Assembly (NCBI GenBank): GCA_003599365.1
Contig: QZJR01000016.1
Span: 1 to 38,449, forward strand
DNA: 38,449 nucleotides
Source of the DNA: Deltaproteobacteria bacterium
Lineage (GTDB): Bacteria; Desulfobacterota; UBA8473
Direction of reading: 5' to 3'
Made by a program: the position numbers and the translations under genes. This document shows, piece by piece, positions 10,280 to 38,449 of this stretch (the stretch's first letter is position 1; each line of letters opens with the position of its first letter). The notes beneath the pieces are model-generated. The model ran no database searches and was not told the origin of the DNA. It saw only the letters and a program-made list of their open reading frames with translations.

Positions 10280-11077
10280 CTACTTGCCCCGAAAGACAGG
10301 TTTCCTCTTCTCCTTGAATGCCTTCTGTCCCTCCTTCAAATCCTCACTACTAAAGCACCGGTTGATAAGCTCCTCAGCCATGGCTTCGTCTTCCGGGGTA
10401 GGCATTGGTGAACTTACAGATTTATTGATGAGTATCTTAGCTCCGCTTACAGATAATGGAGCATTCTCTATTATCTCCCTGGCCAGATCATAGGTCGCTG
10501 ACAGAAGATCATCCTCTGATACCACGTAATTAACAAGCCCCATTTCTTTCGCCTTGTGTGCATCAACCATCCTTCCTGTAAGAAATAGTTCTTTTGCATT
10601 TGCCTCACCTACCAGATTGACGAATCGCCTATGCCCGCTAAAGGAATAAAGAACACCCAGTTTTGCCGGTGGCATGCCAAACTTTGCTTTATCAGAAGCT
10701 ATCCTGAGATCACACGTTGCAGCAAGTTCACAACCTGCTCCAAGGGTAAAGCCATTTACCATGGCAATAACAGGGTATCTATATTCAGAAATCACCTCAA
10801 GCCCCCTCAGCAATGGATTTATCTTTTTTAATGCTTCCATATCTTCCGGACTAATTCCTTTGGGAATATCGAAAATACTGTATCCTGAAGAAAATGCCTC
10901 GTTTCCGGCTCCACGGACGACAACAACTCTGGTTTCTTGATCATCATTTAAGGATTCCATAACCCTAATAAACTGAATTAACAGAGGGGGGGATAATGAA
11001 TTTCGTTTCTCGGGGCGGTTAAATACAATAGTACATATACGATCCTGCTTCTCAACTATTATTAACTTATCATCCAT
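10280..11077 (-). CDS. Crotonase-fold protein (enoyl-CoA hydratase/isomerase family) retaining only the first catalytic Glu
   Basis: 'FNRPEKRNS' and '[29 protein letters not shown]'. The second Glu position is Pro. SD 'aggagg' precedes the ATG at 11077. Confidence 0.9.
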
Positions 11078-11309
11078 TTAGTCCTCCTGCATGACCGAGC
11101 AGCATATTTAATTCCACGAAGCTGCCCGGATCCAGAAGTTTATCAATCCGTTCTCGGGCCGTTAACTTACCGGCATTATGAACCTCTTCTATTTTGTCTG
11201 GTCCTCCGCCGAGTTTTGCCTTTTCCTTAACCTCTCTTAATTGCTGAATCCTACCCTTACCTTGTCCTCCCACAATCTCCTCCTTTTCCTTCACATCGTT
11301 CAACCCCAC
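11070..11309 (-). pseudogene. N-terminal relic (79 codons) of an acyl-CoA carboxylase carboxyltransferase (PccB/MmdA-like)
   Basis: '[45 protein letters not shown]' matches the conserved N-terminus of ~510-aa carboxyltransferases. The frame ends after ~79 codons inside the SD/start of the next crotonase. GTG start with no SD. Confidence 0.6.
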
Positions 11310-11354
11310 CCTGTAACAGGCCAGCTTGATCCCTTGAATCCTTTTAATATCTTC

Positions 11355-12131
11355 TTACCTGCCGGTAAAGGTCGGTTTTCGTTTTTCCAGCATAGCCATT
11401 ACGCCTTCTCCGGCATCCTCACTCTGATTCACTTCATCTGCCAGGGCTCTTAACTCAGATTCAATTTGAGGATCGATCCCATGGCGCTCCAGAAGTTTGT
11501 TAATAGTCAATTTGGTAGCCTTCATAGCCAGTGGAGCATTTTCTTCAGCCAACTCCTTTGCCATGGAATAGGTGGTCTTAATCAGTTGATCAGAAGAAAC
11601 CACCTGACTGACAAGCCCTATCTCCAGTGCCCGTTTCGCATCTACAAGTTTTCCTGCCAAGAGCAGCTCTTTTGCCGCCGCTATACCCACCAAACTGAGG
11701 AGTCGGTTAATTGCGGTATAATAATAAATCCTTCCAAGCTTAACCAGGGTCGCGCCAAATCTGGCCCCTTCCGACGCTATCCTGAAATCCGAGATAACAG
11801 ATATGTCCAGCCCGGCCCCGATGGCCGGCCCGGAGATCATGGCTATGATAGGAGATGGATAACTAATCAGGTTATTGAGACAGTGCTCCAATCCCTTTAT
11901 GGTCTTTTCAATGGATTCAGATCCGCCGGAAAGGTCTACCCCTGAAGAAAAGATATTGTCTCCTGCTCCCCTTATTACAACCACTCGAATATTATTATCC
12001 TCCTTTAAATCACTGAGAATATCTCCCATGCTAAATAGTGCGTCTGCATTTAAGGCATTCCTTTTCTCAGGTCTGTTGATGGAAAGGGTAGTAATATAAC
12101 CATCATCTTCCCTTAAAATTTCTTCTACCAT
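11355..12131 (-). CDS. Crotonase-fold protein lacking both canonical hydratase glutamates
   Basis: 'INRPEKRNAL' and 'GAGLDISVISDFRIASEGARFGATLVKLG' (Glu1 to Asp, Glu2 to Leu). SD 'aaggagg'. Confidence 0.9.
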   Translation of the reverse strand: MVEEILREDDGYITTLSINRPEKRNALNADALFSMGDILSDLKEDNNIRVVVIRGAGDNIFSSGVDLSGGSESIEKTIKGLEHCLNNLISYPSPIIAMISGPAIGAGLDISVISDFRIASEGARFGATLVKLGRIYYYTAINRLLSLVGIAAAKELLLAGKLVDAKRALEIGLVSQVVSSDQLIKTTYSMAKELAEENAPLAMKATKLTINKLLERHGIDPQIESELRALADEVNQSEDAGEGVMAMLEKRKPTFTGR

Positions 12132-12155: not shown

Positions 12156-13427
12156 TTAACCCACATAAACTTCCTGATTCCCTCTTTTAGAGAGTCGCAG
12201 GATATAAAGAAAACCAACGGTGCTTAAAAGGGCAAGAACAGCAATTAATAGCCAACTCCAATAATAGCCAACGCTGTCAGCAATATACCCAAAGACAGGG
12301 GGGCCTATTATGATCCCTATCCACGCAATGGTTACGAGAATGCCCATGATTGATCCGGCCAGTTCCTTGCCTGCCAGCTCTGCGGCCAGGGTTATCAAAA
12401 CAGCGTTCCAACCTATAAAGGTACCTCCCATGAGAATTGACCAAAAGAAAGACAACCAGAGGGGAGAGCCTTTTGATAAGAAAGCCGTTCCAAGTGCACC
12501 GATGAAAGCGATAACCGATAAAATAACTATCGGTATCATTCTGTCTCCGGCAAATAACCGATCACTAATGATACCCCAACCGATCCTGCCCACTGACCCA
12601 GCTATCATTGCAGCAGTCAGACAACCTCCGGCAAGCCCCACTGAAAAGTTTAACTCCTCTTCCAGGTAAAGCACAAGGAACGAGGCAATACCGGTTTGCC
12701 CAAAGGCCATTAGCGGAGTTATAAGGCATAATATTAGAAGAACAGGATTTGACATTACCTTTAGCAGGGATCCCTCTTTTTGGCCTTTTTTCGATGTGGA
12801 TGCCACATTGGATGCCCCTTCAGCGGGGAGAACAGGACGCTCCTTATAAAATATCAGGGACAAAAAAGCCATAACAAGCATCAATATACCAATGACCAAA
12901 ACTCCCAACCTCCAGCTATATGCCACAGTCAGGGCAGGGAGTAAAACAGCAACGATAGCACCCCCTAGAGTAACCCCTGTCTGTTTTATACCCATCGCGG
13001 TGGCCCTGAACCTGGCAGAAAACCAGTACATAATACCTTTGGTCGAAATTTGATTTATCATTCCATAGCCCAGACCGCCAACTGCAGCAAAAACTATGAA
13101 AAACAGATAGTTTTTTGCCAACGCCATAATAGCAAAAGGTATCCCCATTATAATCAGACTGATAATGAGCATAATCCGAGCGCCCAACTTATCTACGGCT
13201 ATTCCGGAAGGTATGGCTATTATAACCGATGCGAAATACAGCACCGAGGTAATAGTTCCGATCTGGGCCCGGCTGAGGTTAAATTCATCTCTAAGAACCG
13301 GAGCCAGCGGACCCCATGTATAAGCACCCATGGACATAACCAACTGGGCCACAGTTAAAATGCCCAAGATTATCCACCCATAACTATTTTGATTCTCTTG
13401 AGTGATACTGGTATCAGGGTCTGTCAT
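12156..13427 (-). CDS. MFS transporter
   Basis: 12 predicted TM segments, ATG with SD 'aaggag'. Sits directly downstream of the tandem mutase genes. Confidence 0.85.
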   Translation of the reverse strand: MTDPDTSITQENQNSYGWIILGILTVAQLVMSMGAYTWGPLAPVLRDEFNLSRAQIGTITSVLYFASVIIAIPSGIAVDKLGARIMLIISLIIMGIPFAIMALAKNYLFFIVFAAVGGLGYGMINQISTKGIMYWFSARFRATAMGIKQTGVTLGGAIVAVLLPALTVAYSWRLGVLVIGILMLVMAFLSLIFYKERPVLPAEGASNVASTSKKGQKEGSLLKVMSNPVLLILCLITPLMAFGQTGIASFLVLYLEEELNFSVGLAGGCLTAAMIAGSVGRIGWGIISDRLFAGDRMIPIVILSVIAFIGALGTAFLSKGSPLWLSFFWSILMGGTFIGWNAVLITLAAELAGKELAGSIMGILVTIAWIGIIIGPPVFGYIADSVGYYWSWLLIAVLALLSTVGFLYILRLSKRGNQEVYVG

Positions 13428-13460: not shown

Positions 13461-15197
13461 CTAAACAAACGAATCCATCTGCCACTCACCAAATACGCCT
13501 CTCAAAACATCACACTGTTCTTGAAGGGTAGCGTATTCTCTTGCCAGATTAACAAAAAGAGGCATCAGGTTCTCATCGTCCTTTTTGGCAGCCCTTTCCA
13601 ACTCTCCAAGAAGCCTCGTTACTTCCCGGTTGTTCCTTGTACGTTTGACTTCAGCAAGGTTAGCCTTCTGCTTTTTCTCGGCATCATACCTCTTCTCTTC
13701 AGAATACGGATGCTCAACCATCTTGCTGGTGGTCACATCCAGCTCGTATTCCTCTGTGAAACAGTTCACTCCAACTATGATATCTTCTCTTTTCTCTATC
13801 CTGGACTGACGTTCAGCAGCGCTCTTTGCAATCGAGCGTTGCATATACCCGTTCTCAATAGCAGCCACAGATCCACCTATCCCCTCGACTTTTTCCAGTT
13901 CTTTCCATGCTGCTTCCTCTATTTCATTGGTCAATGACTCTACATAGTAAGACCCGGCCAGAGGATCTAAAACATCGCACATCCCTGTCTCATACATGAG
14001 AATCCTTGTTGCATCCTCTGCAAGCTGCCTTGCTTCCAAACTCCAACCCAATCCCAGCGGCTCATCATACGGCGGGAAGGCCAATGGCGGACCTCCCGAA
14101 AGAACACCGGCTACTGCGCCTATTACTGAGCGGGTAAGATTGTTCAGTGCCCGTTGTTTGGTGGTGGTACTGATACCACTATAGGCTGTGTATTGGCTTC
14201 GGATTCTCATGCTTTCGGATTTCTTTGCACCGAATCTTTCCTTGAGAATCTTAGCCCACATACGGCGAGACGCCCTATGGAAAGCGATCTCCTTGAAAAA
14301 CTCCATACTACCACCAAAACCTACAAAGGAAAACCTGGGGGCAAAGGCATCAATATTGAGTCCTGCATTTATCCCTTCCTGTAAATAAGCAATCCCGTTA
14401 GCCATAGTGAATGCCAATTCCTGCTCTCTTGTGGCTCCTCCCTCACGGATATGAGCACCGCCAAAGCCGTTTATATTCATCGCCGGAAGACTCTCCGTAA
14501 AGAAGACCAGACTGTCTCGAAACATACGCATGGAAGGCCTCGGAGGGAATATGTAGGTGCCGCGGGAAATAAACTCCTTTAGTATGTCATTCTGGGGGGT
14601 ACCCTTCAACTTTGCCAGTGATATACCCCTCTTCTCTGCAAGAGCCACATACATGGCAACCAGGATATTTGCAGGGGCATTTATCGTCATGTTTGTAGCG
14701 ATCTTGTCCAGATCCAGATTGCCTGTAAATGCCTCAAATATAACCTCAAAATCCCGCAAGGTGTCTACTGCCACACCCACCTTACCTATCTCTCCTTCAA
14801 CTATCTCATTATCCGAATCATAGCCGCACTGGGTAGGAAGATCTAACGCCAGGTTGGGCCCGCCTGTATACATTAATTTCGCCATTAATCTGTAGTAATC
14901 CCTGGTGTCTTCCGGGGTTCCATATCCGGAATATGTTCCTGCCCTTCTCAACCCCCCAGGCTTTGCACCTTTTTCAAGTCTTGGTACAAGATTTACCGGA
15001 TAAGAGGCTGCCGTCAATGGATATTGCCCAGGGAAACCCACATCCCGTAAGAAATCAAAGTCCGGTATGTCTAAAGGCGTATGGAATTCTGTCGGCCTTT
15101 TTTCTATACCAAACCTCTTGGCCGCAGGCAACAACGCCTTCTCCTCCCATTCCTCCTTCTTCTCTTTTATCTCAGCCAATTTATCTTTATTATCCAT
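13461..15197 (-). CDS. Acyl-CoA mutase large (catalytic, B12-dependent) subunit, divergent paralog 1 (578 aa, no fused B12 domain)
   Basis: MCM-family core: 'GTPQNDILKEFISRGTYIFPP', 'HIREGGATREQELAF', 'DPLAGSYYVESLT'. The N-terminal signature diverges ('FPGQYPLTAAS' in place of '..TRG'). Confidence 0.9.
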   Translation of the reverse strand: MDNKDKLAEIKEKKEEWEEKALLPAAKRFGIEKRPTEFHTPLDIPDFDFLRDVGFPGQYPLTAASYPVNLVPRLEKGAKPGGLRRAGTYSGYGTPEDTRDYYRLMAKLMYTGGPNLALDLPTQCGYDSDNEIVEGEIGKVGVAVDTLRDFEVIFEAFTGNLDLDKIATNMTINAPANILVAMYVALAEKRGISLAKLKGTPQNDILKEFISRGTYIFPPRPSMRMFRDSLVFFTESLPAMNINGFGGAHIREGGATREQELAFTMANGIAYLQEGINAGLNIDAFAPRFSFVGFGGSMEFFKEIAFHRASRRMWAKILKERFGAKKSESMRIRSQYTAYSGISTTTKQRALNNLTRSVIGAVAGVLSGGPPLAFPPYDEPLGLGWSLEARQLAEDATRILMYETGMCDVLDPLAGSYYVESLTNEIEEAAWKELEKVEGIGGSVAAIENGYMQRSIAKSAAERQSRIEKREDIIVGVNCFTEEYELDVTTSKMVEHPYSEEKRYDAEKKQKANLAEVKRTRNNREVTRLLGELERAAKKDDENLMPLFVNLAREYATLQEQCDVLRGVFGEWQMDSFV

Positions 15198-15382: not shown

Positions 15383-17119
15383 CTAGACAAACGTATCCAA
15401 CTGCCACTCACCAAACACACCTCTTAAAACATCGCATTGCTCTTGAAGGGTCGCATACTCCCTTGCCAGATTAATGAAAAGGGGCATCAGGTTCTCATCT
15501 TCCTTTTTAGCAGCACTCTCCAATTCTTTCAGAAGCCTCGTAACCTCCCGGTTATTCCTTGTCCGCTTCACCTCAGCCAGATTGGCCTTCTGCTTTTTCT
15601 CGGCATCATACCTCTTCTCTTCAGAATACGGATGCTCAATGATCTTACTGGTGGTTACATCGAGCTCATATTCCTCTGTAAAACAATTCACCCCTACAAT
15701 AAGTTCCTCTCTCCTCTCTATCCTGGCCTGACGCTCGGCAGCGCTCCTTGCACATTCGCGCTGCATATACCCGTTTTCTATTGCCGTCACGGCACCCCCT
15801 ATCCCTTCGATCTTCTCCAGCCCTTTCCACGCAGCATCCTCTATTTCGTTGGTCAATGATTCCACATAGTAAGACCCGGCCAGAGGGTCTATAACATCGC
15901 ACATCCCCGTCTCATACATGACAATCCTTGTGGCATCCTCGGCCAGTTGTCTCGCTTCTAAACTCCAGCCCAACCCCAGCGGTTCATCATATGGTGGAAA
16001 TGCCATTGGCGAACCTCCGGAGAGAACTCCAGCTATTGCCCCTACCACAGAACGGGAAAGGTTGTTCAGCGCCCGCTGCTTGGTGGTGCTGCTGCAACCA
16101 ATATGAGCTGAGAGAGGACACCGGATCCTCATACTATCCTGCTTCTTTGCACCGAACCTTTCTTTAAGAATCTTTGCCCACATACGGCGAGCTGCCCTCT
16201 GAAAGGCTACCTCCTTAAAAAGCTGCATGCTCCCCCCAAACCCATTGAAGGTAAACTTGGGGGCAAAGGCGTCAATATCGACCCCTGCATTCACACCCTC
16301 CTGCAAATAGGCAATCCCTATGGCCATACTAAAGGCCAGCTCCTGTTCCCGAGTAGCTCCCCCTTCACGAATATGATACCCACCGATACTGGTTATGTTT
16401 ACCCCTGGAAGATTCTCAGTAAAGAAGACCACGCTGTCTCGAAACATCCGCATAGAAGGTCTCGGAGGAAATATGTAGGTGCCCCTGGAAACAAACTCTT
16501 TTAGTATGTCATTCTGGGGTGTACACCTTAGTTTTGCCATGTTTATGCCCCTCTTTTCAGCCAGGGCTATGTACATGGCAACCAGGATATTTGCAGCGGC
16601 ACTGATGGTTATGTTCGTGGCTATCCTGTCCAGATCCTGCTCTCCTGTAAATGCCTCATAAATAACCTCAAAATCCCGCAAGGTATCTATCGCGACCCCC
16701 ACCTTGCCTACTTCCCCTTCGACCGTCTCATTATCCGAATCATAACCGCACTGGGTAGGGAGATCTAATGCCAGGTTGGGACCGCCTGTATACATTATCT
16801 TCGCCATCTGCTTATAGTAATCCCTGGTATCTTCCGGAGTGCCATAGCCGGAATATGTCCCTGCCCTTTTCAACCCCCCAGGCTTTGCACCCTTTTCAAT
16901 CCGAGGCACAAGACTTATTGGATAAGCTGATGGGGTAAACGGATATTGCCCCGGAAAACCAACATCACGCTCAAAGTCAAAATCCGCTATATCCAAAGGC
17001 GTATAGAATTCCGTCGGACTTTTCTCTATACCGAACCTCTTGGCTGAGGGCATCAATACCTTCTCTTCCCATTCCTTCCTCTTCTCTTTTATCTCACTCA
17101 ATTTATCTTTATTATCCAT
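15383..17119 (-). CDS. Acyl-CoA mutase large subunit, divergent paralog 2 (578 aa), tandem duplicate of 13461-15197
   Basis: Collinear with paralog 1 with no indels (constant 1922-nt offset), roughly 80-85% aa identity by eye. 'CTPQNDILKEFVSRGTYIFPP' and 'GGYHIREGGAT'. Confidence 0.9.
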   Translation of the reverse strand: MDNKDKLSEIKEKRKEWEEKVLMPSAKRFGIEKSPTEFYTPLDIADFDFERDVGFPGQYPFTPSAYPISLVPRIEKGAKPGGLKRAGTYSGYGTPEDTRDYYKQMAKIMYTGGPNLALDLPTQCGYDSDNETVEGEVGKVGVAIDTLRDFEVIYEAFTGEQDLDRIATNITISAAANILVAMYIALAEKRGINMAKLRCTPQNDILKEFVSRGTYIFPPRPSMRMFRDSVVFFTENLPGVNITSIGGYHIREGGATREQELAFSMAIGIAYLQEGVNAGVDIDAFAPKFTFNGFGGSMQLFKEVAFQRAARRMWAKILKERFGAKKQDSMRIRCPLSAHIGCSSTTKQRALNNLSRSVVGAIAGVLSGGSPMAFPPYDEPLGLGWSLEARQLAEDATRIVMYETGMCDVIDPLAGSYYVESLTNEIEDAAWKGLEKIEGIGGAVTAIENGYMQRECARSAAERQARIERREELIVGVNCFTEEYELDVTTSKIIEHPYSEEKRYDAEKKQKANLAEVKRTRNNREVTRLLKELESAAKKEDENLMPLFINLAREYATLQEQCDVLRGVFGEWQLDTFV

Positions 17120-17167: not shown

Positions 17168-17575
17168 TCAGGCTATTTTACGTACGTTTTTCCTTATAAA
17201 GTCCCCAATATCCTTTATCAGAGTACCAGGACCAAAGATTTCTGTGACACCTTTCTCTTTGAGTATTGGGATATGCTCGTCAGGTATAATGCCACCACCT
17301 ATAACCAACATATCTCCAGCGTCATTTTCCCTCAAAAGATTCACAACCTTGGGGAAGAATGTCAGATGGGCTCCGGATAGGATGCTAAGCCCCACAACAT
17401 CCACATCCTCTTGCAGTGCTGAGTTTACAATCTGTTCGGCTGACTGTCTCCTTCCGGTATAGATTACTTCCATACCCTGGTCTCTCAGCCCGAAGGAGAG
17501 AACCTTTGCGCCTCTATCATGTCCGTCAAGCCCGGGCTTTGCTATTAATACCTTTATCTTTCTTTCTTTTTCCAT
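17168..17575 (-). CDS. Stand-alone B12-binding (cobalamin) small subunit of an acyl-CoA mutase
   Basis: '[18 protein letters not shown]' (DxHxxG), 'GLSILSG' (SxL), 'IGGGIIP' (GG). ATG at 17575 has SD 'aaggagg'. The track's TTG at 17614 would overlap the upstream gene. Confidence 0.9.
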
Positions 17576-21631: not shown

Positions 21632-21678
21632 CTCTTCCTCCTGTATCAAAGTAGATCGTCTTGAAAAATGAAAATAGG

Positions 21679-29401: not shown

Positions 29402-29442
29402 CTTTTCACCCTCCATAAAGTAGAAGTATTGTTAAAAGCCGC

Positions 29443-30219: not shown

Positions 30220-30681
30220 CTACTCCTTTCCCCTCACGGAAAGAACAGGACACGGTGATCTCCTTACAACCCTTTCAGCTACACTTCCCATAAGAATGTG
30301 GCTCACTCCTGATCTTCCATGGGTACCAATAACAATCAAATCAACTTTTCTTTCTTTCGCTACCCTGATGATTTCTTCGGCTGGAATACCTACTTCGATA
30401 AGTTGTCCTTCAAATAAGGTTTGATCTGTTTCTCCATTCACAATTTTCTGAATCTTTTCATTAATGTCGCGTTTCTTTCTTTCCAGGAATTCTCCTGGGG
30501 GATCATCTTCGCCTAAGAAGCCCCGAACGGTTTTTATTTCATTTAGCAGCTCTTGAGAAATCACATGTAAGAGACAGATTTTTGCTCCAAAGTGCCTGGC
30601 AAGAGCTACCCCATATTTCAATGCACGTATAGAAAAATCAGAAAAGTCTATAGGAACCAATATCTTCTTAATCTCTACCAT
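30220..30681 (-). CDS. Universal stress protein (UspA family)
   Basis: 'KILVPIDFSDFS' and 'DLIVIGTHGRSGVSHILMGSVAERVVRRSPCPVL'. Confidence 0.88.
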   Translation of the reverse strand: MVEIKKILVPIDFSDFSIRALKYGVALARHFGAKICLLHVISQELLNEIKTVRGFLGEDDPPGEFLERKKRDINEKIQKIVNGETDQTLFEGQLIEVGIPAEEIIRVAKERKVDLIVIGTHGRSGVSHILMGSVAERVVRRSPCPVLSVRGKE

Positions 30682-30831: not shown

Positions 30832-32337
30832 CTACTGTATGATGTCCTCCTTTGCAGCATTTTCCCCGGCAATGCGTCCAAAGGCAATACATTCGGCGAG
30901 ATTGCTTCCTGCTGAGGGGTAAAGCATACCGTAGATGGAGCCGAATTCTCCGGCGGCGTATAAACGTGGGATTGGATCACCATTCACATTTAATACTTGG
31001 GCCCGGTGATTGCGCTTCGGCCCACCCTGGGTATTGGGGCCCCCTGGAAGGAGTTTTACGCCATAGAAAGGTGGTTTGATTAGGGGTACCAGGTCTTGCT
31101 GTTGGCGGTCGAACTCAGGATCACTTCCCTGGGCACAGTAGCGCTCATAGCCCCTCGCTGTTTGTTCAAGATTGTCGGGGTCCACCCCTATTTTATGAGC
31201 AAGCTCTCTTATGGAACCGGCCTGGATTATCCACCCGCGCTCTATCTCCTTGCTGTTGTCTCTGCTCCATCGGTATAGTCTTACCGGCCCGCTGGCACCT
31301 GTAATTTGTAATGCCAAAGGACCCGAATCCATTCGATTCTGGTCAAAAATCCAGAAGCATGGCACCCTGGGATAGATAAGACGCTGGCTATCAAAAAGTG
31401 TTAGTTCGTAGTACAGGGTATGGTATTTAAAGTTCTCGTTAGTGAACCTTTTACCGTTACGATCCACAAAGAAGAAGCCGCAGGGTTTCGATGGGGCTTT
31501 TCCCATCACCTTGTGCAATACAGAGTTGCAGCCGCGATGGTCAAAATCAAAAGCAATTGGGAAGTCCGGGAATTTACCAACCAGTCTGGCAGAACAGCAG
31601 TTCATATGCCATAGATCGGCGCCGAGTTCCATCACCATACGATGACCATCACCTGTATTAGCCGGTGAACCATAAAAGTGGGTGGGATAGACCTTGAGGT
31701 AATTCAGCTTCATCTCCTCGTTAAACTCAAAGCCGCCACAGGTCATTATCACTGCCCGGCGCGCCCGTATGTTCACTCTATGTCTGCGTTCTTCTTCGCC
31801 TGTTTCTACTCTGACCCCTACAACTTCTCCTTTCAGGCTGGTAATAAGTCTGATCGCAGGGCTATCGTACATTATTCTAATCTCACGATGGGTTACCTGC
31901 CTTTCAAGGAACTTCGCAAACCCTGTTCCAAATCCTGGATACCTACAGATGTCCATGCATTCAGCACCTTCAACTTGGTGCTCCCCGAAAGGGCCGATGA
32001 ACCTGGGTTTGCCTCCCAGATTTTCAATCCATTCCCTGTTTTGTGATGCATATTCAGCCCAGGCCTTTATCACGTCCGTATCCGTCCAACTGACACCACG
32101 TTCTATCTGGCAAAGGGATTGAAGATACTTGATTCCTTTTTCAACATTGTTTACATTGACAAATATGCCGCCGGACATCTTGGTGTTGGTGCAGTGGGTG
32201 TCTTCAGGCTGTTTTTCCAGGATGAGAACCACTGCCCCTTTATCGTGAGCGGTTATGGCAGCCACCGCTCCGGCGCCGCCGTAACCCACAATCACCACAT
32301 CAGCCTCTTTGTCCCAATCTTCCTTTTCAGTAAGCAT
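30832..32337 (-). CDS. FAD-dependent oxidoreductase (FAD_binding_2; 3-ketosteroid-dehydrogenase / fumarate-reductase flavoprotein-like)
   Basis: 'DVVIVGYGGAGAVAA' dinucleotide fold and C-terminal 'RLYAAGEFGSIYG..GSNLAECIAFGRIAG'. ATG at 32337 follows SD 'aaggag'. The track's GTG at 32439 is unsupported. Confidence 0.85.
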   Translation of the reverse strand: MLTEKEDWDKEADVVIVGYGGAGAVAAITAHDKGAVVLILEKQPEDTHCTNTKMSGGIFVNVNNVEKGIKYLQSLCQIERGVSWTDTDVIKAWAEYASQNREWIENLGGKPRFIGPFGEHQVEGAECMDICRYPGFGTGFAKFLERQVTHREIRIMYDSPAIRLITSLKGEVVGVRVETGEEERRHRVNIRARRAVIMTCGGFEFNEEMKLNYLKVYPTHFYGSPANTGDGHRMVMELGADLWHMNCCSARLVGKFPDFPIAFDFDHRGCNSVLHKVMGKAPSKPCGFFFVDRNGKRFTNENFKYHTLYYELTLFDSQRLIYPRVPCFWIFDQNRMDSGPLALQITGASGPVRLYRWSRDNSKEIERGWIIQAGSIRELAHKIGVDPDNLEQTARGYERYCAQGSDPEFDRQQQDLVPLIKPPFYGVKLLPGGPNTQGGPKRNHRAQVLNVNGDPIPRLYAAGEFGSIYGMLYPSAGSNLAECIAFGRIAGENAAKEDIIQ

Positions 32338-32486
32338 TGCATCTCCTTTTGCTGTAACCTCCAATCCTTTTGAGACTGATGGAAAAATCATCTTTCTCTC
32401 TTCCAAAATGTATCTTTTGCAAACTCCTAATTGGTTCACACTGAAAAATTCCCTTTTCCGCTCTCTGGTTCAGGTTTTTTGAGTAT

Positions 32487-34499
32487 CTATATACTTATGG
32501 CAAGTTCAGCCCCTTCTCTTATGGCCCACATAACATCCCTCGGCTCTACACAATCTCCGATTTCATAGACCTCCGGCACCAAGCCTTTCAATTTTGTGCT
32601 CAACTCTTTCTCCGGTTTAACACCCACAGCCAGTACCACTGAATCAGCCTCTAAAAATACAAGATCGTTATTGAAAACAACGTAAATCCCATCGGTCATT
32701 ATCTCTATAACCGGACAATTTTGGTAAAGATAAACCCCTTTCCTAATCAATCGATTACGCAACGTCAGGTAAGTGTTCCGCTCTATATCTCTACCGAGGG
32801 TCCTTCGGGTTACGAGGCTTACCTTTTTCCCTTCTCCTGCAAGCTGATCGGCAATCTCCATACCCAGGTACCGTCCACCGATTACGACTGCCCGGTTACC
32901 AGTCTTCACTTTACCTAGAATCACATCATTGGCTTGAACCACATTCTTATTATCTATACCCTTTATATCCAAAATGGCAGGGCTCGCCCCCGTTGCGATA
33001 ACTACTATGTTCGGCTTTTCGCGTTTAACCAGCCCAGGAGTTACTCTCGTTCCAAGGTGAACTTTTACACCGGCTTTATCCAAACCCCTTTTCAAATAGT
33101 AAAGCACCTTGGGATAATCGTGCCTTTTTTGTGTCTGCTGGGACGCCACGTACCACTGCCCTCCCAATTCTTTGTCCTGTTCGTAAAGTGTAACTCGATG
33201 GCCCCTTTCTTGAAGAGTCCGCGCCGCTTCCATGCCGGCAGGACCACCACCAACTACCATTATCTTTTTAGGCAATGAGGTAGGCACAATGACAAATTCT
33301 TTTTCCCGCATAAGGGTTGGGTTAACAGAGCAATGAAGTCCTTCTCTCAAGATATTGGGATGATCCTTGAAATTGAAGCAATTCAAACAATAAATACAAG
33401 CACGAATATCATCAAAACGCCCTTCTTTGGCCTTATTGGACCATTCCGGGTCTGCCAACAATGCCCTCCCTAACGCAACGAAATCCGCTTTACCTTGAGC
33501 CAATACTTCCTCGGCAAACGTAGGATCGACAATCTTTCCTACAGCAATCACCGGTACCTTGACCACCTTTTTTATTGCTTCCGCCAAATGTACCAGAGGT
33601 CCCTGCTGAAAAAGAAAACTGGGATATTGCCAATCGATAGATCCCTGTTCGCTGGCAGATACGTCCAGGGCATCGGCACCAGCTTCAACGAAAAGAGGCG
33701 CTTGTCGGGTAGAATCGTCTATATTGATACCTCCGGGCATAAAATCACTTCCGCTAAATCTAAAAATAACGGGAAAGTCCAAGCCCACTTTCTGTTTCAC
33801 GGCATCAATGATCTCGCAGGCAAAAAGGGCCCTCTTTTCTACGCTCCCTCCGTATTCATCGGTTCTTTGGTTGGCCAATGGAGAGAGGAACTGACTTATG
33901 AGATACCCGTGACCACCGTGGATCTCTACCGCATCAAACCCAGCATCCTTAACCCTTCTCGCTGCTTCCGCAAAAGCTTTGATAATACGCTTTATGTCCT
34001 CCCCGGTGGCTTCTTCAGGCGGAATGTTTCCCCGCACCCAGATGGAGAGATCCTGCTCTTCTTTCGCCCCGGGAATCTCCAACACCCTGAGCAGCCTGGG
34101 AATAGGTGATGGGCCGAGAATCCTTAATTCCTCTGGACGGTCCACCATGTGTTGATAATCGGTCAGTAACCTTCCGTGATGGACAAGTTGAAATGCTGCC
34201 TGACCGCCGTTTTTATGAATCGCATTCGCCACTCGCTGCAGACCGGGGATAAATTTGTCATCATAGATCGACGGTCGATGGGGAGCGCGGCTTTCTCTCA
34301 TAATAATGCTGGACTGACAAATAATAAACCCCACTCCACCTTTAGCCCGCTCAGCATAGTAGTTTACTGTCCGATCAGTGATTTCTCCTTCCGGACTATG
34401 GGCGACAGTACCCATGGGCGACATGACAATACGATTCTTTACCTCCATCTTACCGATATTCCCAGGTCGGAACAGATTTATCAATTTCGATCTATACAT
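32487..34499 (-). CDS. OYE-domain / Fe-S / FAD-NAD(P) three-domain oxidoreductase (2,4-dienoyl-CoA reductase FadH / BaiH-like)
   Basis: 'NRIVMSPMGT', 'HGGHGYLISQFLSPLANQRTDEYGGS', Cys cluster 'CIYCLNCF..HCSVNP', and a second Rossmann motif 'MVVGGGPAGMEAA'. Confidence 0.9.
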   Translation of the reverse strand: MYRSKLINLFRPGNIGKMEVKNRIVMSPMGTVAHSPEGEITDRTVNYYAERAKGGVGFIICQSSIIMRESRAPHRPSIYDDKFIPGLQRVANAIHKNGGQAAFQLVHHGRLLTDYQHMVDRPEELRILGPSPIPRLLRVLEIPGAKEEQDLSIWVRGNIPPEEATGEDIKRIIKAFAEAARRVKDAGFDAVEIHGGHGYLISQFLSPLANQRTDEYGGSVEKRALFACEIIDAVKQKVGLDFPVIFRFSGSDFMPGGINIDDSTRQAPLFVEAGADALDVSASEQGSIDWQYPSFLFQQGPLVHLAEAIKKVVKVPVIAVGKIVDPTFAEEVLAQGKADFVALGRALLADPEWSNKAKEGRFDDIRACIYCLNCFNFKDHPNILREGLHCSVNPTLMREKEFVIVPTSLPKKIMVVGGGPAGMEAARTLQERGHRVTLYEQDKELGGQWYVASQQTQKRHDYPKVLYYLKRGLDKAGVKVHLGTRVTPGLVKREKPNIVVIATGASPAILDIKGIDNKNVVQANDVILGKVKTGNRAVVIGGRYLGMEIADQLAGEGKKVSLVTRRTLGRDIERNTYLTLRNRLIRKGVYLYQNCPVIEIMTDGIYVVFNNDLVFLEADSVVLAVGVKPEKELSTKLKGLVPEVYEIGDCVEPRDVMWAIREGAELAISI

Positions 34500-34591: not shown

Positions 34592-34999
34592 TTACCCTGA
34601 TGTCCCAGCATCAAAATGACTTCTAACATAGTCCACTATATCTGAAATCTTTGTTCCGGGAGTGAATATCCCTTCTATTCCAATCCCTTTCAATGTGGGT
34701 ACAATTGGCGGGGGGATGATCCCGCCAACAATGATCTGAATATCCCGGATTGATCTCTCCTTGAGCAGCTCTACCAATCTCGGCACAAGAATTTCAGGAG
34801 CGCCATCCATAATTCGGTAGCCTATGAAGTCTACATCCTCCTGAACGGCAGATTTCACTATCTGAGGGGGAATCTGGAACCCCCCAAGTATTACCTCTAT
34901 ACCTGCCTCCCTCAACCCCTTTCCCACTACATAGTAACCGGTAGCATGCCCCGGACTGTCAGAAACCAGCAACACTCTGATCTTTTTATTAAGTTCCAA
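34592..34999 (-). CDS. Divergent stand-alone B12-binding-domain protein (small-subunit paralog lacking the Asp of DxHxxG)
   Basis: 'RVLLVSDSPGHATGYYV' aligns to '[13 protein letters not shown]', so His and Gly are kept and Asp becomes Pro. SxL is 'GYRIMDG', and the GG motif is 'IVGGIIPP'. TTG start with SD 'ggagg'. Confidence 0.8.
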   Translation of the reverse strand: MELNKKIRVLLVSDSPGHATGYYVVGKGLREAGIEVILGGFQIPPQIVKSAVQEDVDFIGYRIMDGAPEILVPRLVELLKERSIRDIQIIVGGIIPPPIVPTLKGIGIEGIFTPGTKISDIVDYVRSHFDAGTSG

Positions 35000-35015
35000 T
35001 CTCCACCTCCAAGTT

Positions 35016-35086
35016 TAGACTATAGACTATTAGCCTGTAGACTATTAGCCTACTTCAGCCTACAGCCTAAACACCTGAGTAGTTAC
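35016..35086. repeat. Tandem 'tagactattagcct' repeats ending in the 'cctgagtagttac' terminus shared with the MITE
   Basis: Copies lie at 35023-35036 and 35038-35051. The block is 24/28 identical to the reverse complement of hairpin 6227-6254. 'cctgagtagttac' occurs at 35074-35086 and also at 15368-15380. Confidence 0.55.
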
Positions 35087-36753
35087 ATACCGAAGTAGCA
35101 TCCCCATACATGGCTTAGATCTGCCGGGCCATAAACCTTTTCTCTTATCTCAACAATCTCTCCGATGCTCAGATATGCCTTAACAGCCTCTACCATAGGT
35201 CCTATTATATTTATTCTATTCCTGTACGCATCTTCCAGCAGCTTCTTCGCTTTCTCTGCTTTTCCAGGGTCTCTTTTCTTCTTAACTCTATCGAGCCTTT
35301 CTATCTGTTTGTCTCTCCAGACAGGATCGTATCCCAGAATATCCGTATTACCGAGATCAATCCCCCCTTCACCCTCTCTCACAACAAATCTATTAACACC
35401 CACCATAGCCCTTTCGTTATTGTCTATGGCCTTTTGCCTGAGATATCCGGACTCTTTGCCCTGATCAACAATATACTTATATGCCTTCCGGGGCTCCATA
35501 TCCTCTAATTCTTTCAGTGTCTCTAATGCCTTTTGTTCAAGTTGATTGGTAAGAGACTCTATGCAATATGAACCCCCTAAAGGATCGATAACGTTTGCTA
35601 CACCGCTTTCATGGCCAATTATCTGTTGGGTACGCAGTGATAAGGTAGCTGAAGCCCTGGTTGGTATGGCTAATGCCTCGTCAAAGGAGTTTACAGACAT
35701 TGACTGAGCACCCCCCAGCACAGCAGCAAGGGCGTGGATGGTAGAGCGGATTACGTTATTAAGGGGCTGCTGGGCTGTCAGGTTAATTGCTGTGGTCTGG
35801 GTATGGAATCGCATAAGCCATGATCTGGGATCCCTGGCATTGAACCTTTCTTTAACTGTCCTTGCCCATAACCTGCGCATTGCGCGGAATTTGGCTACCT
35901 CTTCCAGGAAGTCATTCTCAGAGCTGAGAAAAAAGGAGATCCTTGGGGCAACTTCATCAACATCTATGTTCCTTGCGATTACGGATTGCAGGGTAAAACC
36001 TCCCATGTAGACCCCAAAAGCAATTTCCTGAGGGGCAGATATGCCTTCATCCCTGATATTCCTCACAGAGATACTGGTATGGTTCCATCGCGGCAGATTC
36101 TTTGTGCAATACTCACTGATATCCACCGAACCATTCCCCCTCATTTGCGGGCCTTCGCCAAAAGGGAAAACACAGTTCTGAATAGTTCCGGACAGATTCT
36201 TAAAATCTATACCCTGCCTTTCGGCTTCTGCCAGAATCATGGCAAAGACAGGTATGGAAAAGCCAATCTGGTTGATGCTGATCTCAGACATATCTATCCC
36301 GTCAAACAGGGTTTCAATGTCTGCCAGGGTATCAATCCATACCCCGCCCTTTCCCAGAATACCAAAACTCCGTTCATCACCGGACTCATAGGGCTGGTAG
36401 CCCATTCCGCAGACACTGAATCCGGTCTGCCCTTGTTTAAATAGATATTTCAGCCTCTCGTTGGTCTCCTCAGCAGTCCCCAATCCTACTACCTGTCTTA
36501 TAGTCCATTCTTTTGTCCTATAACCTGTTGGCGTGACCCCCCTGGTAAAGGGATACGAACCGGGGGAAGAAATATCTTCAACATAGTTATTGTCTTTAAT
36601 ATCAAGAGGGGTGTAAATCGGTTTTAAGGGGAGCCCTGAAAGGGTTGTCATCTCTTTCTCTTCTATTGAAAATTTCTTTAAGACTTCTTTAACACTGGCT
36701 TCATATCCCTTGTTCAATTGCTCAATCTCTTTCAATATCTCTTCTTTAAACAA
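35083..36753 (-). CDS. Acyl-CoA mutase large subunit, paralog 4 (556 aa), with the most divergent active-site motifs
   Basis: 'SPGSYPFTRGVTPTGY', 'HTQTTAINLTAQQPLNN', 'DPLGGSYCIESLT'. However, it has 'GTIQNCVFPFGEG' and 'VRNIRDEGISAPQEIAF' in place of the QNDILKE and GYH..EAGA motifs. TTG start with SD 'ggagg'. Confidence 0.88.
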   Translation of the reverse strand: MFKEEILKEIEQLNKGYEASVKEVLKKFSIEEKEMTTLSGLPLKPIYTPLDIKDNNYVEDISSPGSYPFTRGVTPTGYRTKEWTIRQVVGLGTAEETNERLKYLFKQGQTGFSVCGMGYQPYESGDERSFGILGKGGVWIDTLADIETLFDGIDMSEISINQIGFSIPVFAMILAEAERQGIDFKNLSGTIQNCVFPFGEGPQMRGNGSVDISEYCTKNLPRWNHTSISVRNIRDEGISAPQEIAFGVYMGGFTLQSVIARNIDVDEVAPRISFFLSSENDFLEEVAKFRAMRRLWARTVKERFNARDPRSWLMRFHTQTTAINLTAQQPLNNVIRSTIHALAAVLGGAQSMSVNSFDEALAIPTRASATLSLRTQQIIGHESGVANVIDPLGGSYCIESLTNQLEQKALETLKELEDMEPRKAYKYIVDQGKESGYLRQKAIDNNERAMVGVNRFVVREGEGGIDLGNTDILGYDPVWRDKQIERLDRVKKKRDPGKAEKAKKLLEDAYRNRINIIGPMVEAVKAYLSIGEIVEIREKVYGPADLSHVWGCYFGM

Positions 36754-36789
36754 TTTCTACCTCCAAATTTAAGTTTCCCGGGAAGGTTA

Positions 36790-38094
36790 CTACTTCATCA
36801 ATCTCGGCAGCCACAATGCAAGTTCAGGGAAAACAACAAACAATGCCAGAACGGCAAACTCCAGGAGCACGTAGGGCATAGTCCCACTTATGATTTCTTC
36901 CATCGTCACGTCATCGGCTATAGACTTCATGGTATATAGATTTAGACCGACAGGCGGAGTAATAACGGCCATTTCCAGGTTCATCACCAGTATGATACCA
37001 TACCATAAAGGGTCAAAGCCAAGAGCAATTACTGTAGGAAGAAAGATAGGGGTGGTTACCAATACTATTGATGCCCCATCAATGAAACAACCCATAAATA
37101 CCAGGACCAGCATAAAGAACATAATGACAAGGAAGGGGGATAGACCCAACGAAACAGAGAATTCTGCCAACCGATCAGGTACCCTGGTATAAAGCAAAAA
37201 CTGTCCAAAGGCAAAGGCGCATGCAGCAATGAGTATAACGGCGCCCACAATTCGGGCGGTGTTGCCAAATATCTTCTTAAGAGCCTCCCGGTTTAAAGAC
37301 CTGTATACGAAAGCCCCAATCAAAAGGGCAACTGCGGCCCCAATAGCCCCTGCTTCAGTCGGCGTACAGATACCGGTATAGATGCTGACCATTACCGCAA
37401 CGATGAGTACAAGCGCCGTCCATAACCTCTTAAGAGATGAAAATTTCTCCCTCCACGTTATCCTATCCTCACTCCTCACAGCAAGGGCAGGGTTTCTAAA
37501 CGCCTTAACAAAAACGTAACCTGCCATTGCTAGAGCAAGAAACACCCCTGGTACTATTCCGCCAATAAAGAGTTTTCCTACCGATACCCCGGATACCGCG
37601 CCATAAAGGATGAACGGCAGACTCGGAGGGATAAGCATTGCCAGAGCGCCAGCGGCTGTAATTGACCCTACGGCAAGTTTCTTATCGTACCCGTGCCTTA
37701 ACATCTCTGGCAGAGCCATCACACCAATAACGGCAACCCCTATTATGCTTACCCCACACATAGCCCCGAATATGGCGCAGGCAAATATACTTGCAACAGC
37801 AAGCCCACCAGGGAGGCGGTAAAACCATTTGTGTAATGCAAAATACAAATCTCTGCCAATTCCTGTCTGAGCAATTGTTTCCCCCATTATGATATAGAGG
37901 GGGGCAGCTACCAAAACAGGATTGTTAAGCTGAGACATGATTGATAACGGCACCTGGGTTAAGCCTATAACCCCCCGGCTCAAGAAGATGCCAACAGCGC
38001 CTGCAATACCCAGAGATGCAAAAATGGGACACTTGAACGCTATCAAAACAAAAATAATCAGAAATGTTATTGCTATAACCAATTCAGGAGCCAT
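36790..38094 (-). CDS. dctM: TRAP transporter large permease subunit
   Basis: ~434 aa, highly hydrophobic, DctM-like. ATG at 38094 follows SD 'gaggagg' and overlaps the DctQ stop by 11 nt. Confidence 0.9.
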   Translation of the reverse strand: MAPELVIAITFLIIFVLIAFKCPIFASLGIAGAVGIFLSRGVIGLTQVPLSIMSQLNNPVLVAAPLYIIMGETIAQTGIGRDLYFALHKWFYRLPGGLAVASIFACAIFGAMCGVSIIGVAVIGVMALPEMLRHGYDKKLAVGSITAAGALAMLIPPSLPFILYGAVSGVSVGKLFIGGIVPGVFLALAMAGYVFVKAFRNPALAVRSEDRITWREKFSSLKRLWTALVLIVAVMVSIYTGICTPTEAGAIGAAVALLIGAFVYRSLNREALKKIFGNTARIVGAVILIAACAFAFGQFLLYTRVPDRLAEFSVSLGLSPFLVIMFFMLVLVFMGCFIDGASIVLVTTPIFLPTVIALGFDPLWYGIILVMNLEMAVITPPVGLNLYTMKSIADDVTMEEIISGTMPYVLLEFAVLALFVVFPELALWLPRLMK

Positions 38095-38449
38095 GTTTAT
38101 CCTCCTCTCTAGCCTCAATTATATGCAACAGATACTCCAGTCCGACAAACAGAGAACCCAGGGGGATGACTATATAAATAACCCACAACGGCATGCGAAA
38201 TTCACCGGCCATGTACATGCCATATTTATATGTTGAAAGAGCGGCCTTGCTTCCCATCCAGACCAGGACGGCACAAAACAGGATGACCAGCACAGAATCA
38301 AACACATCAACACGTCTCTGATTTCTTCTCGACAGACGCGACACCAACATACCCATGTCAATATGCTGCCCCCTTCTAACCAGCTCGGCAGCACAAATAA
38401 ACCCCATATATACCAATAAAACGGCATTCAGTTCGATAGCCCAACTAGT
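38084..38449 (-). CDS. dctQ: TRAP transporter small permease subunit (5'-partial; frame stays open to the window edge)
   Basis: Hand translation upstream of the track's TTG stays open (..TSWAIELNAVLLVYMGF..). DctQ-like 'GQHIDMGMLVSRL', directly upstream of dctM. Confidence 0.8.
   Translation of the reverse strand, partial: TSWAIELNAVLLVYMGFICAAELVRRGQHIDMGMLVSRLSRRNQRRVDVFDSVLVILFCAVLVWMGSKAALSTYKYGMYMAGEFRMPLWVIYIVIPLGSLFVGLEYLLHIIEAREEDKHGS

Follow-up and report, generated by a model that had tools for sequence, protein, structure and literature searches.

The window analysed here is a stretch of 38,449 nucleotides (contig QZJR01000016.1) from an uncultured, sulfate-reducer-like bacterium, and it carries an array of acyl-CoA genes with four large (M1a, M1b, M2 and M3) and three small subunits (S1, S2 and S3) of B12-dependent acyl-CoA mutases (Table 1). 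One kind of mutase, M1, appears from its sequence and gene context to match the mutase found beside anaerobic alkane-activating genes, and to travel with a rare radical SAM protein of B12-binding type. Open reading frames of the window were listed and scanned with Pfam and NCBIfam profiles. From DctQ (38084 to the window end) down to an MFS transporter gene at 8762, every gene lies on the minus strand. In order of transcription the array encodes: the TRAP subunits DctQ and DctM, M3, S3, a BaiCD-like old yellow enzyme (OYE), an FAD_binding_2 flavoprotein, Usp, a GntR-FCD regulator, an MmgE/PrpD protein and an AMP ligase; M2, S2, a 148-aa protein resembling ATC hydrolase, the crotonase ECH4, an NMO/FabK-like enzyme, ECH3 and a family III CoA-transferase; and a radical SAM/PDZ protein, S1, M1b, M1a, an MFS transporter, ECH2, ECH1 and a final MFS transporter. 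The Pfam MM_CoA_mutase model gives 457-586 bits for the four large subunits, and the B12-binding model 79, 80 and 43 bits for the small subunits.

An earlier description made from the letters of the DNA (the sequence-only reading) had reported three mutase modules, small-large-large at 13461-17575, large-small at 24018-26132 and large-small at 34592-36753, and all three are present on the minus strand. The AMP ligase, family III CoA-transferase, four crotonases, three flavoenzymes, MmgE/PrpD protein, two MFS transporters, TRAP DctQM and GntR-FCD regulator that it listed were likewise recovered where it had put them. Its gene list, although every named gene is real, lacked the radical SAM/PDZ, Usp and ATC-hydrolase-like genes, and its start at 10280 was too narrow since the last MFS gene also belongs to the array; at the other end, DctQ runs off the window. 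No MeaB/ArgK-like protein was found by Pfam among the window's open reading frames of at least 100 aa, in line with that reading, but a cobalamin-type radical SAM/PDZ gene stands in the place that MeaB has in related loci. None of the array proteins scanned reaches an NCBIfam equivalog cut-off. Promoter and terminator scans of the array gave counts within the shuffle expectation and set no operon boundaries, and an Rfam scan of the whole window returned zero matches, hence no cobalamin riboswitch. The start of S1 was placed at the ATG at 17575 (the frame is open to 17614) because its orthologs are 135 aa long.

Table 1. Genes and features of the array, in order of transcription.
Feature	Position	Strand	Evidence and remarks
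DctQ, TRAP small membrane subunit	38084..38449	-	Pfam DctQ 1.5e-19; frame open to base 38449, 5' end cut by window edge
DctM, TRAP large membrane subunit	36790..38118	-	Pfam DctM 7.8e-91
M3, atypical MCM-family large subunit	35083..36753	-	Pfam 486 bits
S3, B12-binding small subunit with variant motif	34592..34999	-	Pfam B12-binding 42.7 bits
OYE/2,4-dienoyl-CoA-reductase-type Fe-S flavoenzyme, BaiCD-like	32487..34499	-	Pfam Oxidored_FMN and Pyr_redox_2; NCBIfam BaiCD 515 bits, below the 825 cut-off
FAD_binding_2 flavoprotein (KstD/TcuA/fumarate-reductase-like)	30832..32439	-	Pfam; below all equivalog cut-offs
Usp, universal stress protein	30220..30681	-	Pfam Usp 1.1e-34; kept at start of a relative's contig (L096)
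GntR-FCD transcriptional regulator	29443..30153	-	Pfam GntR and FCD
MmgE/PrpD-family protein, candidate substituted-succinate epimerase/isomerase	28028..29416	-	Pfam; nearest solved relative iminodisuccinate epimerase
AMP-forming acyl-CoA ligase	26331..27896	-	Pfam AMP-binding
M2, HCM-related mutase large subunit	24471..26132	-	Best PDB match HcmA, 477 bits
S2, canonical B12-binding small subunit	24018..24422	-	Pfam 79.6 bits; DGHLRG motif
M2-S2 cassette, strain-variable, 2,365 bp	23925..26289	-	4 bp instead in L003; present in L096
148-aa protein, weak ATC-hydrolase similarity	23469..23915	-	Pfam 23.4 bits, below cut-off; kept in L001 and L003
Crotonase ECH4	22655..23449	-	First catalytic Glu replaced by Trp
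NMO/FabK-like FMN enzyme	21679..22620	-	Pfam NMO; FabK 295 bits, below the 453 cut-off
Crotonase ECH3	20837..21649	-	Lacks both catalytic Glu
Family III CoA-transferase	19603..20820	-	Pfam CoA_transf_3 391 bits; below all equivalog cut-offs
Radical SAM/PDZ protein, predicted DUF512/Mmp10 type (class II cobalamin-dependent), 651 aa	17589..19544	-	CX3CX2C and predicted fold
S1, canonical B12-binding small subunit for M1	17168..17575	-	Pfam 78.6 bits; DGHDRG motif
M1b, mutase large subunit	15383..17119	-	Tyr89/Gln197/Arg207/Tyr243/His244 kept
M1a, paralog of M1b	13461..15197	-	84% identity to M1b; Tyr243 replaced by Ala
MFS transporter	12156..13427	-	Pfam MFS_1; kept in L001 and L003
Crotonase ECH2, candidate substituted-malonyl-CoA decarboxylase	11355..12131	-	Lacks both catalytic Glu
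Crotonase ECH1	10280..11077	-	Second Glu absent; NCBIfam methylmalonyl-CoA decarboxylase 186 bits, below the 257 cut-off
MFS transporter, final gene of array	8762..10057	-	Pfam MFS_1; 92%-identical ortholog at same position in L003

The substrate and catalytic residues of methylmalonyl-CoA mutase (MCM, EC 5.4.99.2) are Tyr89, Gln197, Arg207, Tyr243 and His244. The 2-hydroxyisobutyryl-CoA mutases (HCM) are defined by Ile90 and Asp117 (HcmA numbering), and the isobutyryl-CoA mutases (ICM) by Phe at the Tyr89 position and Gln at the Arg207 position, with a smaller hydrophobic residue at 89 in the pivalyl-CoA mutase (PCM) variants. Specificity positions were taken from alignments made with HMMER, to solved structures, and with MAFFT, in the numbering of P. 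shermanii MutB, and the controls in these alignments show the expected signatures: HcmA and two relatives have Ile/Asp/Gln; an ICM-like sequence (L114) has Phe/Gln; and four split MCMs have Tyr/Ala/Arg. All four large subunits of the array have HcmA (PDB 4R3U) as their best solved relative, ahead of the MCMs. M1a and M1b are close paralogs, while M1 shares 30-35% identity with M2 and M3, which are 43% identical to each other. The phylogeny that the sequence-only reading had called for, here a neighbour-joining tree without support values and without ethylmalonyl-CoA mutase (ECM), IcmA or PCM references, places M1 in a deep separate clade and M2 and M3 in separate clades near HCM.

Both M1 proteins keep Tyr89, Gln197, Arg207 and His244 and carry a 9-aa insertion before Tyr89. 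M1b thus has all five MCM residues, while M1a has lost Tyr243 and differs from M1b in the segment 326-335. At the pocket positions 328/330/364/366, where MCM has H/Q/H/N, M1b has S/H/A/P and M1a T/Y/A/P; M2 keeps all four MCM residues, and M3 has H/Q/S/N. M1a and M1b differ at 95 of 578 positions, most densely in the pocket segment, and 38 of these differences are fixed across three strains, because of which the two look like subfunctionalised paralogs with different pockets. An M1-type mutase of 68% identity (P0056) is labelled 'Candidatus Methanosuratincola sp.', which may reflect a binning error or a transfer to archaea.

M2 contains Val89, Val at the HCM Asp117 position and Cys at 207, and keeps the Tyr-His pair. 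Its V/V/Q/C signature is identical in three orthologs (L096-L098, 71-98% identity); an exact-sequence look-up of the M2 protein returned no record. M3 has Val89, a deletion of the nine-residue loop that holds Arg207, CGMG in place of FDxPT and Arg-Asn in place of Tyr243-His244. In its partner S3, SDSPGHATG replaces the DxHxxG motif and YRI replaces SxL. These oddities are kept in 34 homologs from Thermodesulfobacteriota, Spirochaetota, Nitrospinota, Rokubacteria, NC10 and Binatia, and Binatia have S3 and M3 as a single fused protein of 674 aa with the same variant motif (P0234 and P0239). Because the peculiarities are shared across so many phyla and occur in fusions, M3/S3 is best regarded as a genuine conserved clade, and the same conservation and fusions rule out a decaying pseudo-paralog. 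Lacking His244 and Arg207 and carrying a variant B12 motif, this clade could catalyse a rearrangement that is new to the superfamily. In one 155-kb metagenome contig (L010, 839-8069), a type III-A CRISPR-Cas (Csm/Cas10) locus adjoins the M3-S3 pair, which is followed by two FAD proteins.

Judged by these residues, the four large subunits appear to form three distinct mutase classes (M1a/M1b, M2 and M3) outside the characterised specificity classes. The cluster is unusual, and in this the sequence-only reading, which had contrasted it with known mutase operons, is supported. The HCM residues Ile90/Asp117 are Val/Val in M2, Val/Cys in M3 and Tyr/Ala in M1, whereas true HCM relatives (L105 and L108) keep Ile/Asp. 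M2 has a small hydrophobic residue at position 89 but Cys rather than Gln at 207, a comparison made without a PCM or IcmA reference, and the split architecture argues against ECM membership. That the four are redundant MCM paralogs, serving the ordinary propionate/succinate metabolism of a sulfate reducer, is very improbable. The strong Pfam matches, the full MCM residue set of M1b and scores above the TIGR00641 cut-off for all four large subunits speak for such paralogs. In the NCBIfam MCM equivalog (NF006944), however, the large subunits score 417, 406, 494 and 386 bits against a cut-off of 876, the model describing a fused 721-aa enzyme so that split subunits are penalised. The M1 pocket and the insertion before Tyr89 differ from three solved MCMs and from canonical split MCMs (L099-L104), Arg207 is missing from M2 and M3, His244 is also missing from M3, and the window contains no methylmalonyl-CoA epimerase, no propionyl-CoA carboxylase or transcarboxylase and no MeaB.

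The neighbourhood was compared with other genomes, as the sequence-only reading had proposed; only M1, of the three mutase classes, has a conserved extended neighbourhood. M1-type mutases of 61-81% identity occur in four loci (L006, L092, L094 and L119), each with a radical SAM/PDZ gene. The simplest, in Syntrophales (L119), is a minimal unit of radical SAM/PDZ, S1-type (85%), M1-type (81%) and ECH2-type (71%) genes set among housekeeping genes. In Thermodesulfobacteriota (L006; GCA_052745215.1, JBRAKX010000029.1), M1-type, PrpD-like, ECH3-type (69% identical), NMO and radical SAM/PDZ genes occur together, the NMO ortholog (64% identical to that of the window) adjoining the radical SAM gene. 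A complete Dehalococcoidales genome (L092) has ECH, radical SAM/PDZ, MeaB and PrpD-like genes beside those of a small subunit, a CoA-transferase and an M1-type mutase, and an actinomycetotal locus (L094) has the M1-type mutase, radical SAM/PDZ, small subunit and PrpD-like genes. In Dehalococcoidia (L013), ECH1-type, CoA-transferase, S1, M1, acyl-CoA dehydrogenase and PrpD-like genes lie within a bbs-like beta-oxidation set that includes short-chain dehydrogenases/reductases, DUF35 with an SCP-x thiolase, OYE and electron transfer flavoprotein. PrpD-like genes flank M1-type mutases in five loci (L006, L012, L013, L092 and L094), and family III CoA-transferase paralogs flank M1 or the radical SAM gene in three (L013, L092 and L093). 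The L006 locus also contains two M1-type paralogs (P0057 and P0115).

Two loci place such genes beside enzymes of the fumarate-adding type. In a metagenome-assembled genome (MAG) of Desulfatibacillaceae (L012), a sigma-54 activator, S1-type, M1-type (54%), MeaB and PrpD-like genes are directly followed by two glycyl-radical activases and an 897-aa PFL-like/Gly_radical enzyme. This enzyme is 47% identical over 848 aa to that of a Peptococcaceae MAG (L093), which scores 746 bits to MasD (PDB 9O8U), 464 to benzylsuccinate synthase and about 285 to other glycyl-radical enzymes. The MasD-like operon of L093, with BssC/TutF, two activases and MoxR/VWA genes, is directly followed by radical SAM/PDZ, CoA-transferase, a split mutase, a second CoA-transferase, DctPQM and acyl-CoA dehydrogenase genes. 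The L093 mutase carries a fourth type of signature and, as M3, lacks His244.

MeaB/ArgK proteins usually carry the label 'LAO/AO transport' ATPase. In Desulfoglaeba alkanexedens, two ass clusters encode MCM large and small subunits, a 'LAO/AO transport' ATPase, MmgE/PrpD and a carboxyl transferase (PMC7180275). The gene set of the ass/mas module (split mutase, MmgE/PrpD, carboxyl-removing enzyme and CoA-activating enzyme) has all four of its functions represented in the array; physical linkage to a glycyl-radical enzyme is seen for the M1-type ortholog of L012 and for the radical-SAM-linked mutase of L093, and not in the window. The alkyl- or arylsuccinate connection raised by the sequence-only reading has in this way gained comparative support, for the M1 module only (L012, L093 and PMC7180275).

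The partners of M1 are consistent with chemistry on a substituted succinate. Over residues 3-430, the MmgE/PrpD protein scores 236 bits to iminodisuccinate (IDS) epimerase (PDB 2HP0), compared with 176 to IRG1 and 143 to CAD, and it stays far below the PrpD equivalogs (49 bits against a cut-off of 950 for NF042438 and 38.5 against 575 for NF006943). Because the nearest solved enzyme acts on a 2-substituted succinate, the protein is a candidate for the missing epimerase. The sequence-only reading had taken it as a hint of a di- or tricarboxylic substrate; since the protein is closest to IDS epimerase and not to 2-methylcitrate dehydratase, it points to a substituted succinate and away from a tricarboxylate. 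The Pfam family CoA_transf_3, to which the CoA-transferase belongs, also contains alpha-methylacyl-CoA racemases. Classical enoyl-CoA hydratases have two catalytic glutamates (in GGGxE... and ...PE... motifs); at these positions, aligned without a reference hydratase, ECH1 has E/A, ECH2 D/V, ECH3 N/V and ECH4 W/E. In L119 the ECH2 gene comes immediately after that of the mutase, in sister strains a carboxyltransferase takes the place of ECH1, and the E. coli sbm-ygfG genes provide a precedent; by analogy, ECH2 and ECH1 may decarboxylate the mutase product.

The radical SAM/PDZ protein is the most informative companion of M1. Its CX3CX2C motif falls at C190/C194/C197 when counted from the probable ATG start at 19544 (C207/C211/C214 from a GTG at 19595), and the cluster cysteines are invariant in 36 homologs. 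The family is small, with 84 clusters in an indexed search and 261 representatives at E <= 1e-30 among 1.84 billion. A sequence search of the PDB gave a marginal DUF512 match only, and it was the fold search that settled the assignment: the AlphaFold2 model (predicted local distance difference test, pLDDT, 82.5; predicted template modelling score, pTM, 0.81) matched in Foldseek 9cg2 (E 7e-10, TM 0.63), then 9cg1 (E 6e-9) and then Mmp10 (about 1e-6). The protein shares a C-terminal NxFFGGNI...LL motif with DUF512, and family members carry PF04459. The model predicts a C-terminal cobalamin-binding Rossmann-type domain of the DUF512 fold, as in class II cobalamin-dependent radical SAM proteins. 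Cofactor analysis on purified csDUF512 and pfDUF512 showed cobalamin (PMC11659888). No substrate is known for the cobalamin-binding DUF512 proteins; for csDUF512, the PDZ domain has been proposed to bind the C-terminus of a partner, and Mmp10 methylates a residue of methyl-coenzyme M reductase (PMC11659888, PMC12931638). Because the predicted fold matches DUF512/Mmp10 and DUF512 proteins bind cobalamin, the array would encode a fourth probable cobalamin protein.

Three further observations concern this protein and its family. Its N-terminal residues 33-175 form two similar units of a helix and a beta-hairpin, joined by a disordered linker at 78-120 (pLDDT <50), with no counterpart in the solved DUF512 proteins. 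A 412-aa protein (P0250) on a 9,684-bp contig is 100% identical to part of it and is probably the same sequence assembled or gene-called differently. A distant homolog (37%; L095, 1-21767) lies with five B12-binding radical SAM genes, a DUF512 protein, methyltransferases and U32 peptidases, in what looks like a cluster for a natural product or a ribosomally synthesised and post-translationally modified peptide (RiPP), so that remote members of the family would have other roles.

The radical SAM/PDZ gene lies between or beside mutase subunit genes in seven contexts, and in six of them no MeaB is nearby. A strict substitution for MeaB is ruled out by L092, in which both genes stand side by side. 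The large subunits of the M1 family have a conserved, hydrophobic tail (...EWQxD[T/S]F[V/I] in close relatives), and the class I PDZ-ligand pattern [S/T]-x-hydrophobic ends 15 of 27 M1-family sequences and none of 34 M3 sequences, although these sequences are related and the radical-SAM-linked mutases of L006 and L092 do not fit the pattern; docking of the PDZ domain on the M1 C-terminus is suggested as a lead only. One might go further and propose a dedicated partner of the M1-clade mutases that docks on their C-terminus through PDZ and acts on the mutase itself, either by post-translational modification of an active-site residue, in the manner of Mmp10, or by loading or regenerating cobalamin in the place of MeaB, a proposal that we consider doubtful at present. 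If true, it would give a first function to a subfamily of DUF512 proteins and define a new kind of maturation or repair factor for B12 mutases. A systematic linkage of DUF512 to acyl-CoA mutase genes is not mentioned in PMC11659888 or PMC12931638.

The close relatives of the array show which of its parts move independently. In relatives from groundwater and other environmental metagenomes (L001/L096 and L003-L005; 85-99% amino acid identity), the order from Usp to the final MFS gene is kept. Within this order, M2-S2 is a clean cassette that is replaced by 4 bp in L003, where the flanks are 95-97% identical, and is present in L096. A weak terminator-like hairpin (6-bp stem and T-run) lies directly past the S2 stop, at 23991-24005 on the minus strand and within the 3' end of the cassette. 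In L003/L004/L005 1-1124, the strains that lack M2-S2, the ortholog of the AMP ligase is broken into two reading frames (186 and 340 aa), which suggests a frameshift and a possible joint loss of ligase and cassette. The relatives also have an extra MFS gene between the CoA-transferase and the radical SAM gene, and in L001 and L003 a 521-aa carboxyltransferase holds the position of ECH1. Elsewhere, M2 orthologs (71-76% identity) have an M20 peptidase and MFS gene, or a TetR regulator, as neighbours, and M3-S3 pairs (58-76% identity for M3) lie beside an acyl-CoA dehydrogenase and a protein of the metallo-beta-lactamase fold, two FAD proteins, or a CoA-transferase and cobalamin genes.

This modularity bears on the idea, put forward in the sequence-only reading, of one linear pathway in which a single branched di- or tricarboxylic acid undergoes three successive B12 rearrangements by M3, M2 and M1 in turn. 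The genes all point the same way with little space between them, one GntR regulator lies in mid-array, the promoter and terminator scans give nothing above chance by which to split them, and the order from Usp to ECH2 is kept in a close relative. The pathway is nevertheless not favoured, because a strain of 96% identity lacks precisely M2-S2 and has retained all else in the array and because M2 and M3 orthologs have unrelated neighbours; moreover, the conserved extended neighbourhood belongs to M1 only, and a carboxylate-binding site is present in M1 and in neither M2 nor M3. We regard a single pathway as quite unlikely, and the earlier interpretation thus stands in part, in its link between M1 and substituted succinates but not in its single substrate.

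We propose instead, with a probability of roughly 0.55, that the array is a modular island whose core isomerises and decarboxylates a 2-substituted succinyl-CoA, accompanied by two independently mobile mutase cassettes. The core would consist of the radical SAM/PDZ protein, S1, M1b/M1a and ECH2/ECH1, together with the PrpD protein that resembles IDS epimerase, one or both of the family III CoA-transferase and the AMP ligase, and the transporters. A 2-substituted succinate, with alkyl- or cycloalkyl-succinate as the leading candidate, would be imported and converted into its CoA thioester, and then epimerised by the PrpD-like protein or by the protein of the CoA-transferase/racemase family. The adenosylcobalamin-dependent M1, with Arg207 and Tyr89 holding the free carboxylate, would form a substituted malonyl-CoA, which a non-hydratase crotonase (in sister strains the carboxyltransferase) may decarboxylate to a branched acyl-CoA for beta-oxidation. 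M2-S2, with a hydrophobic Val/Val/Cys pocket and no carboxylate binder, probably isomerises a branched monocarboxylic acyl-CoA supplied by the AMP ligase next to it. M3-S3, which has altered catalytic residues and forms a conserved clade of its own, is here paired with TRAP uptake and two flavoenzymes and would act apart from the core.

The same core chemistry could also serve a substrate of non-hydrocarbon origin, such as methylsuccinate, ethylsuccinate, an itaconate or mesaconate derivative or tricarballylate taken up through the TRAP and MFS systems. The window has three uptake systems and two activation enzymes and no glycyl-radical enzyme; the M1-type locus of L006 contains two DctPQM sets, a class II fumarase-type lyase, a glyoxalase-fold (epimerase-like) protein and a carboxyltransferase, again with no glycyl-radical enzyme, and none is in view in L119 and L094. 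The variation at positions 328/330/364/366 within the M1 family suggests several substrates. Yet the close relatives come from groundwater metagenomes, and succinate adducts have been reported in groundwater at hydrocarbon-contaminated sites, a point that would apply if these samples came from such sites. In L012 and L093, fumarate-adding enzymes are the immediate neighbours of M1-type or radical-SAM-linked modules, and Desulfoglaeba has the same gene families in its ass clusters (PMC7180275). We consider a non-hydrocarbon substrate rather unlikely.

Several points weigh against the modular island with a succinyl-CoA core. No fumarate-adding enzyme (PFL-like/Gly_radical) is present in the 38-kb window or in the contigs of its relatives L001, L003 and L096, and other dicarboxylates would fit equally. 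The mutase beside the MasD-like operon of L093 (13138-14775) is not of the M1 type, with Phe89, Glu197, no Arg at the aligned position 207 and Tyr-Asn at 243-244, and the 'ass-associated mutase' is thus not one clade. A scan of a genome collection with M1b returned 599 matches, almost all of them canonical MCMs caught by the generic QNDILKEF motif, with L012, L013 and L038 as the only useful ones; the scan being saturated in this way, the linkage of M1 to ass genes rests on individual loci rather than on frequency. The decarboxylase assignment rests on gene position and missing residues, and the NCBIfam methylmalonyl-CoA decarboxylase score is below its cut-off. Finally, the linkage of the M3/OYE/FAD part to the rest is seen in this window only, as the relative's contig ends at Usp.

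After fumarate addition, anaerobic alkane degradation proceeds through activation, epimerisation, carbon-skeleton rearrangement and decarboxylation. The enzymes for this are still called putative or unclear (PMC6776118, PMC8163825), and an epimerase has been proposed only (PMC13450708). For these steps the array offers concrete candidates: the M1 clade, whose enlarged pocket varies and has a site for binding a carboxylate; a putative epimerase that resembles IDS epimerase; and a crotonase or carboxyltransferase for the decarboxylation. Split MCM-like genes in ass clusters were already known, although uncharacterised (PMC7180275, PMC6776118, PMC8163825). In the literature that was searched, no description was found of the M1 clade with its active-site differences, of its DUF512-type radical SAM/PDZ and IDS-epimerase-like partners, or of the M2 and M3/S3 clades, and searches on mutase with PrpD and radical SAM, on alkylsuccinate rearrangement and on acyl-CoA mutase phylogeny returned nothing specific. 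The DUF512 cobalamin radical SAM proteins have no known substrates (PMC11659888), and the M1 loci give one of their subfamilies its first genomic context that recurs. The conserved, uncharacterised M2 and M3 clades add to the range of B12-dependent acyl-CoA mutases known so far and are of interest to branched-chain biocatalysis.

Directly downstream of the array, on the minus strand at 6258-8564, lies a gene for a T2SSE secretion ATPase (type II/IV) with N-terminal GAF and MshEN domains. Its adjacency to the array is kept in L003 (96% amino acid identity), and it is probably unrelated to the catabolic genes. In the left part of the window, on the plus strand, a 3-hydroxyacyl-CoA dehydrogenase reading frame (49-978, TTG start) overlaps that of an isochorismatase-family protein (897-1574) by 82 bp, and an M48 peptidase, an Amidohydro_2 protein and a LysE exporter complete this unrelated portion.

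Compared with solved enzymes, the four large subunits are nearest to HcmAB (4R3U), with which they share the split architecture, but the pair of residues that defines HCM is replaced in each of the three classes. The MmgE/PrpD protein resembles IDS epimerase (2HP0) in overall score, and its genomic partner is a mutase rather than an aminopolycarboxylate pathway. The radical SAM/PDZ protein has the DUF512 proteins (9CG1, 9CG2) and Mmp10 as the top structural matches of its predicted model, shares with them CX3CX2C and the C-terminal motif, and contains a PDZ domain as csDUF512 does (PMC11659888); it differs in that the PDZ domain lies between the radical SAM and C-terminal domains and not at the N-terminus, in an extra N-terminal region of about 170 aa and in an identity of 11-16% only.

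Among known gene clusters, the 'mcmLS' genes of the ass/mas clusters in Desulfoglaeba alkanexedens ALDC and Desulfatibacillum alkenivorans AK-01 are similar in combining split mutase subunits with MmgE/PrpD, carboxyl-removing and CoA-activating enzymes (PMC7180275), and the M1-type ortholog of the Desulfatibacillaceae MAG has that arrangement beside a glycyl-radical enzyme of the fumarate-adding type. Unlike these clusters, the window lacks ass/mas genes and MeaB, and has transporters, a GntR regulator, a duplicated large subunit and the cobalamin-type radical SAM/PDZ gene. As no ass-linked mutase has so far been studied biochemically (PMC6776118, PMC8163825), this comparison is one between two uncharacterised systems.

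The sbm-argK-ygfG-ygfH operon of E. coli differs from the array in several respects: the mutase of the window is split and its pocket remodelled; the place of ArgK/MeaB is taken by the predicted DUF512-type radical SAM/PDZ protein; the crotonases score below the methylmalonyl-CoA decarboxylase cut-off; and the CoA-transferase is of family III, whereas YgfH belongs to another family. The proposed logic is nevertheless alike, in that a succinyl-type CoA ester would pass through a mutase to a crotonase-fold decarboxylase, with a CoA-transferase in addition, and the minimal unit of L119 mirrors the E. coli operon.

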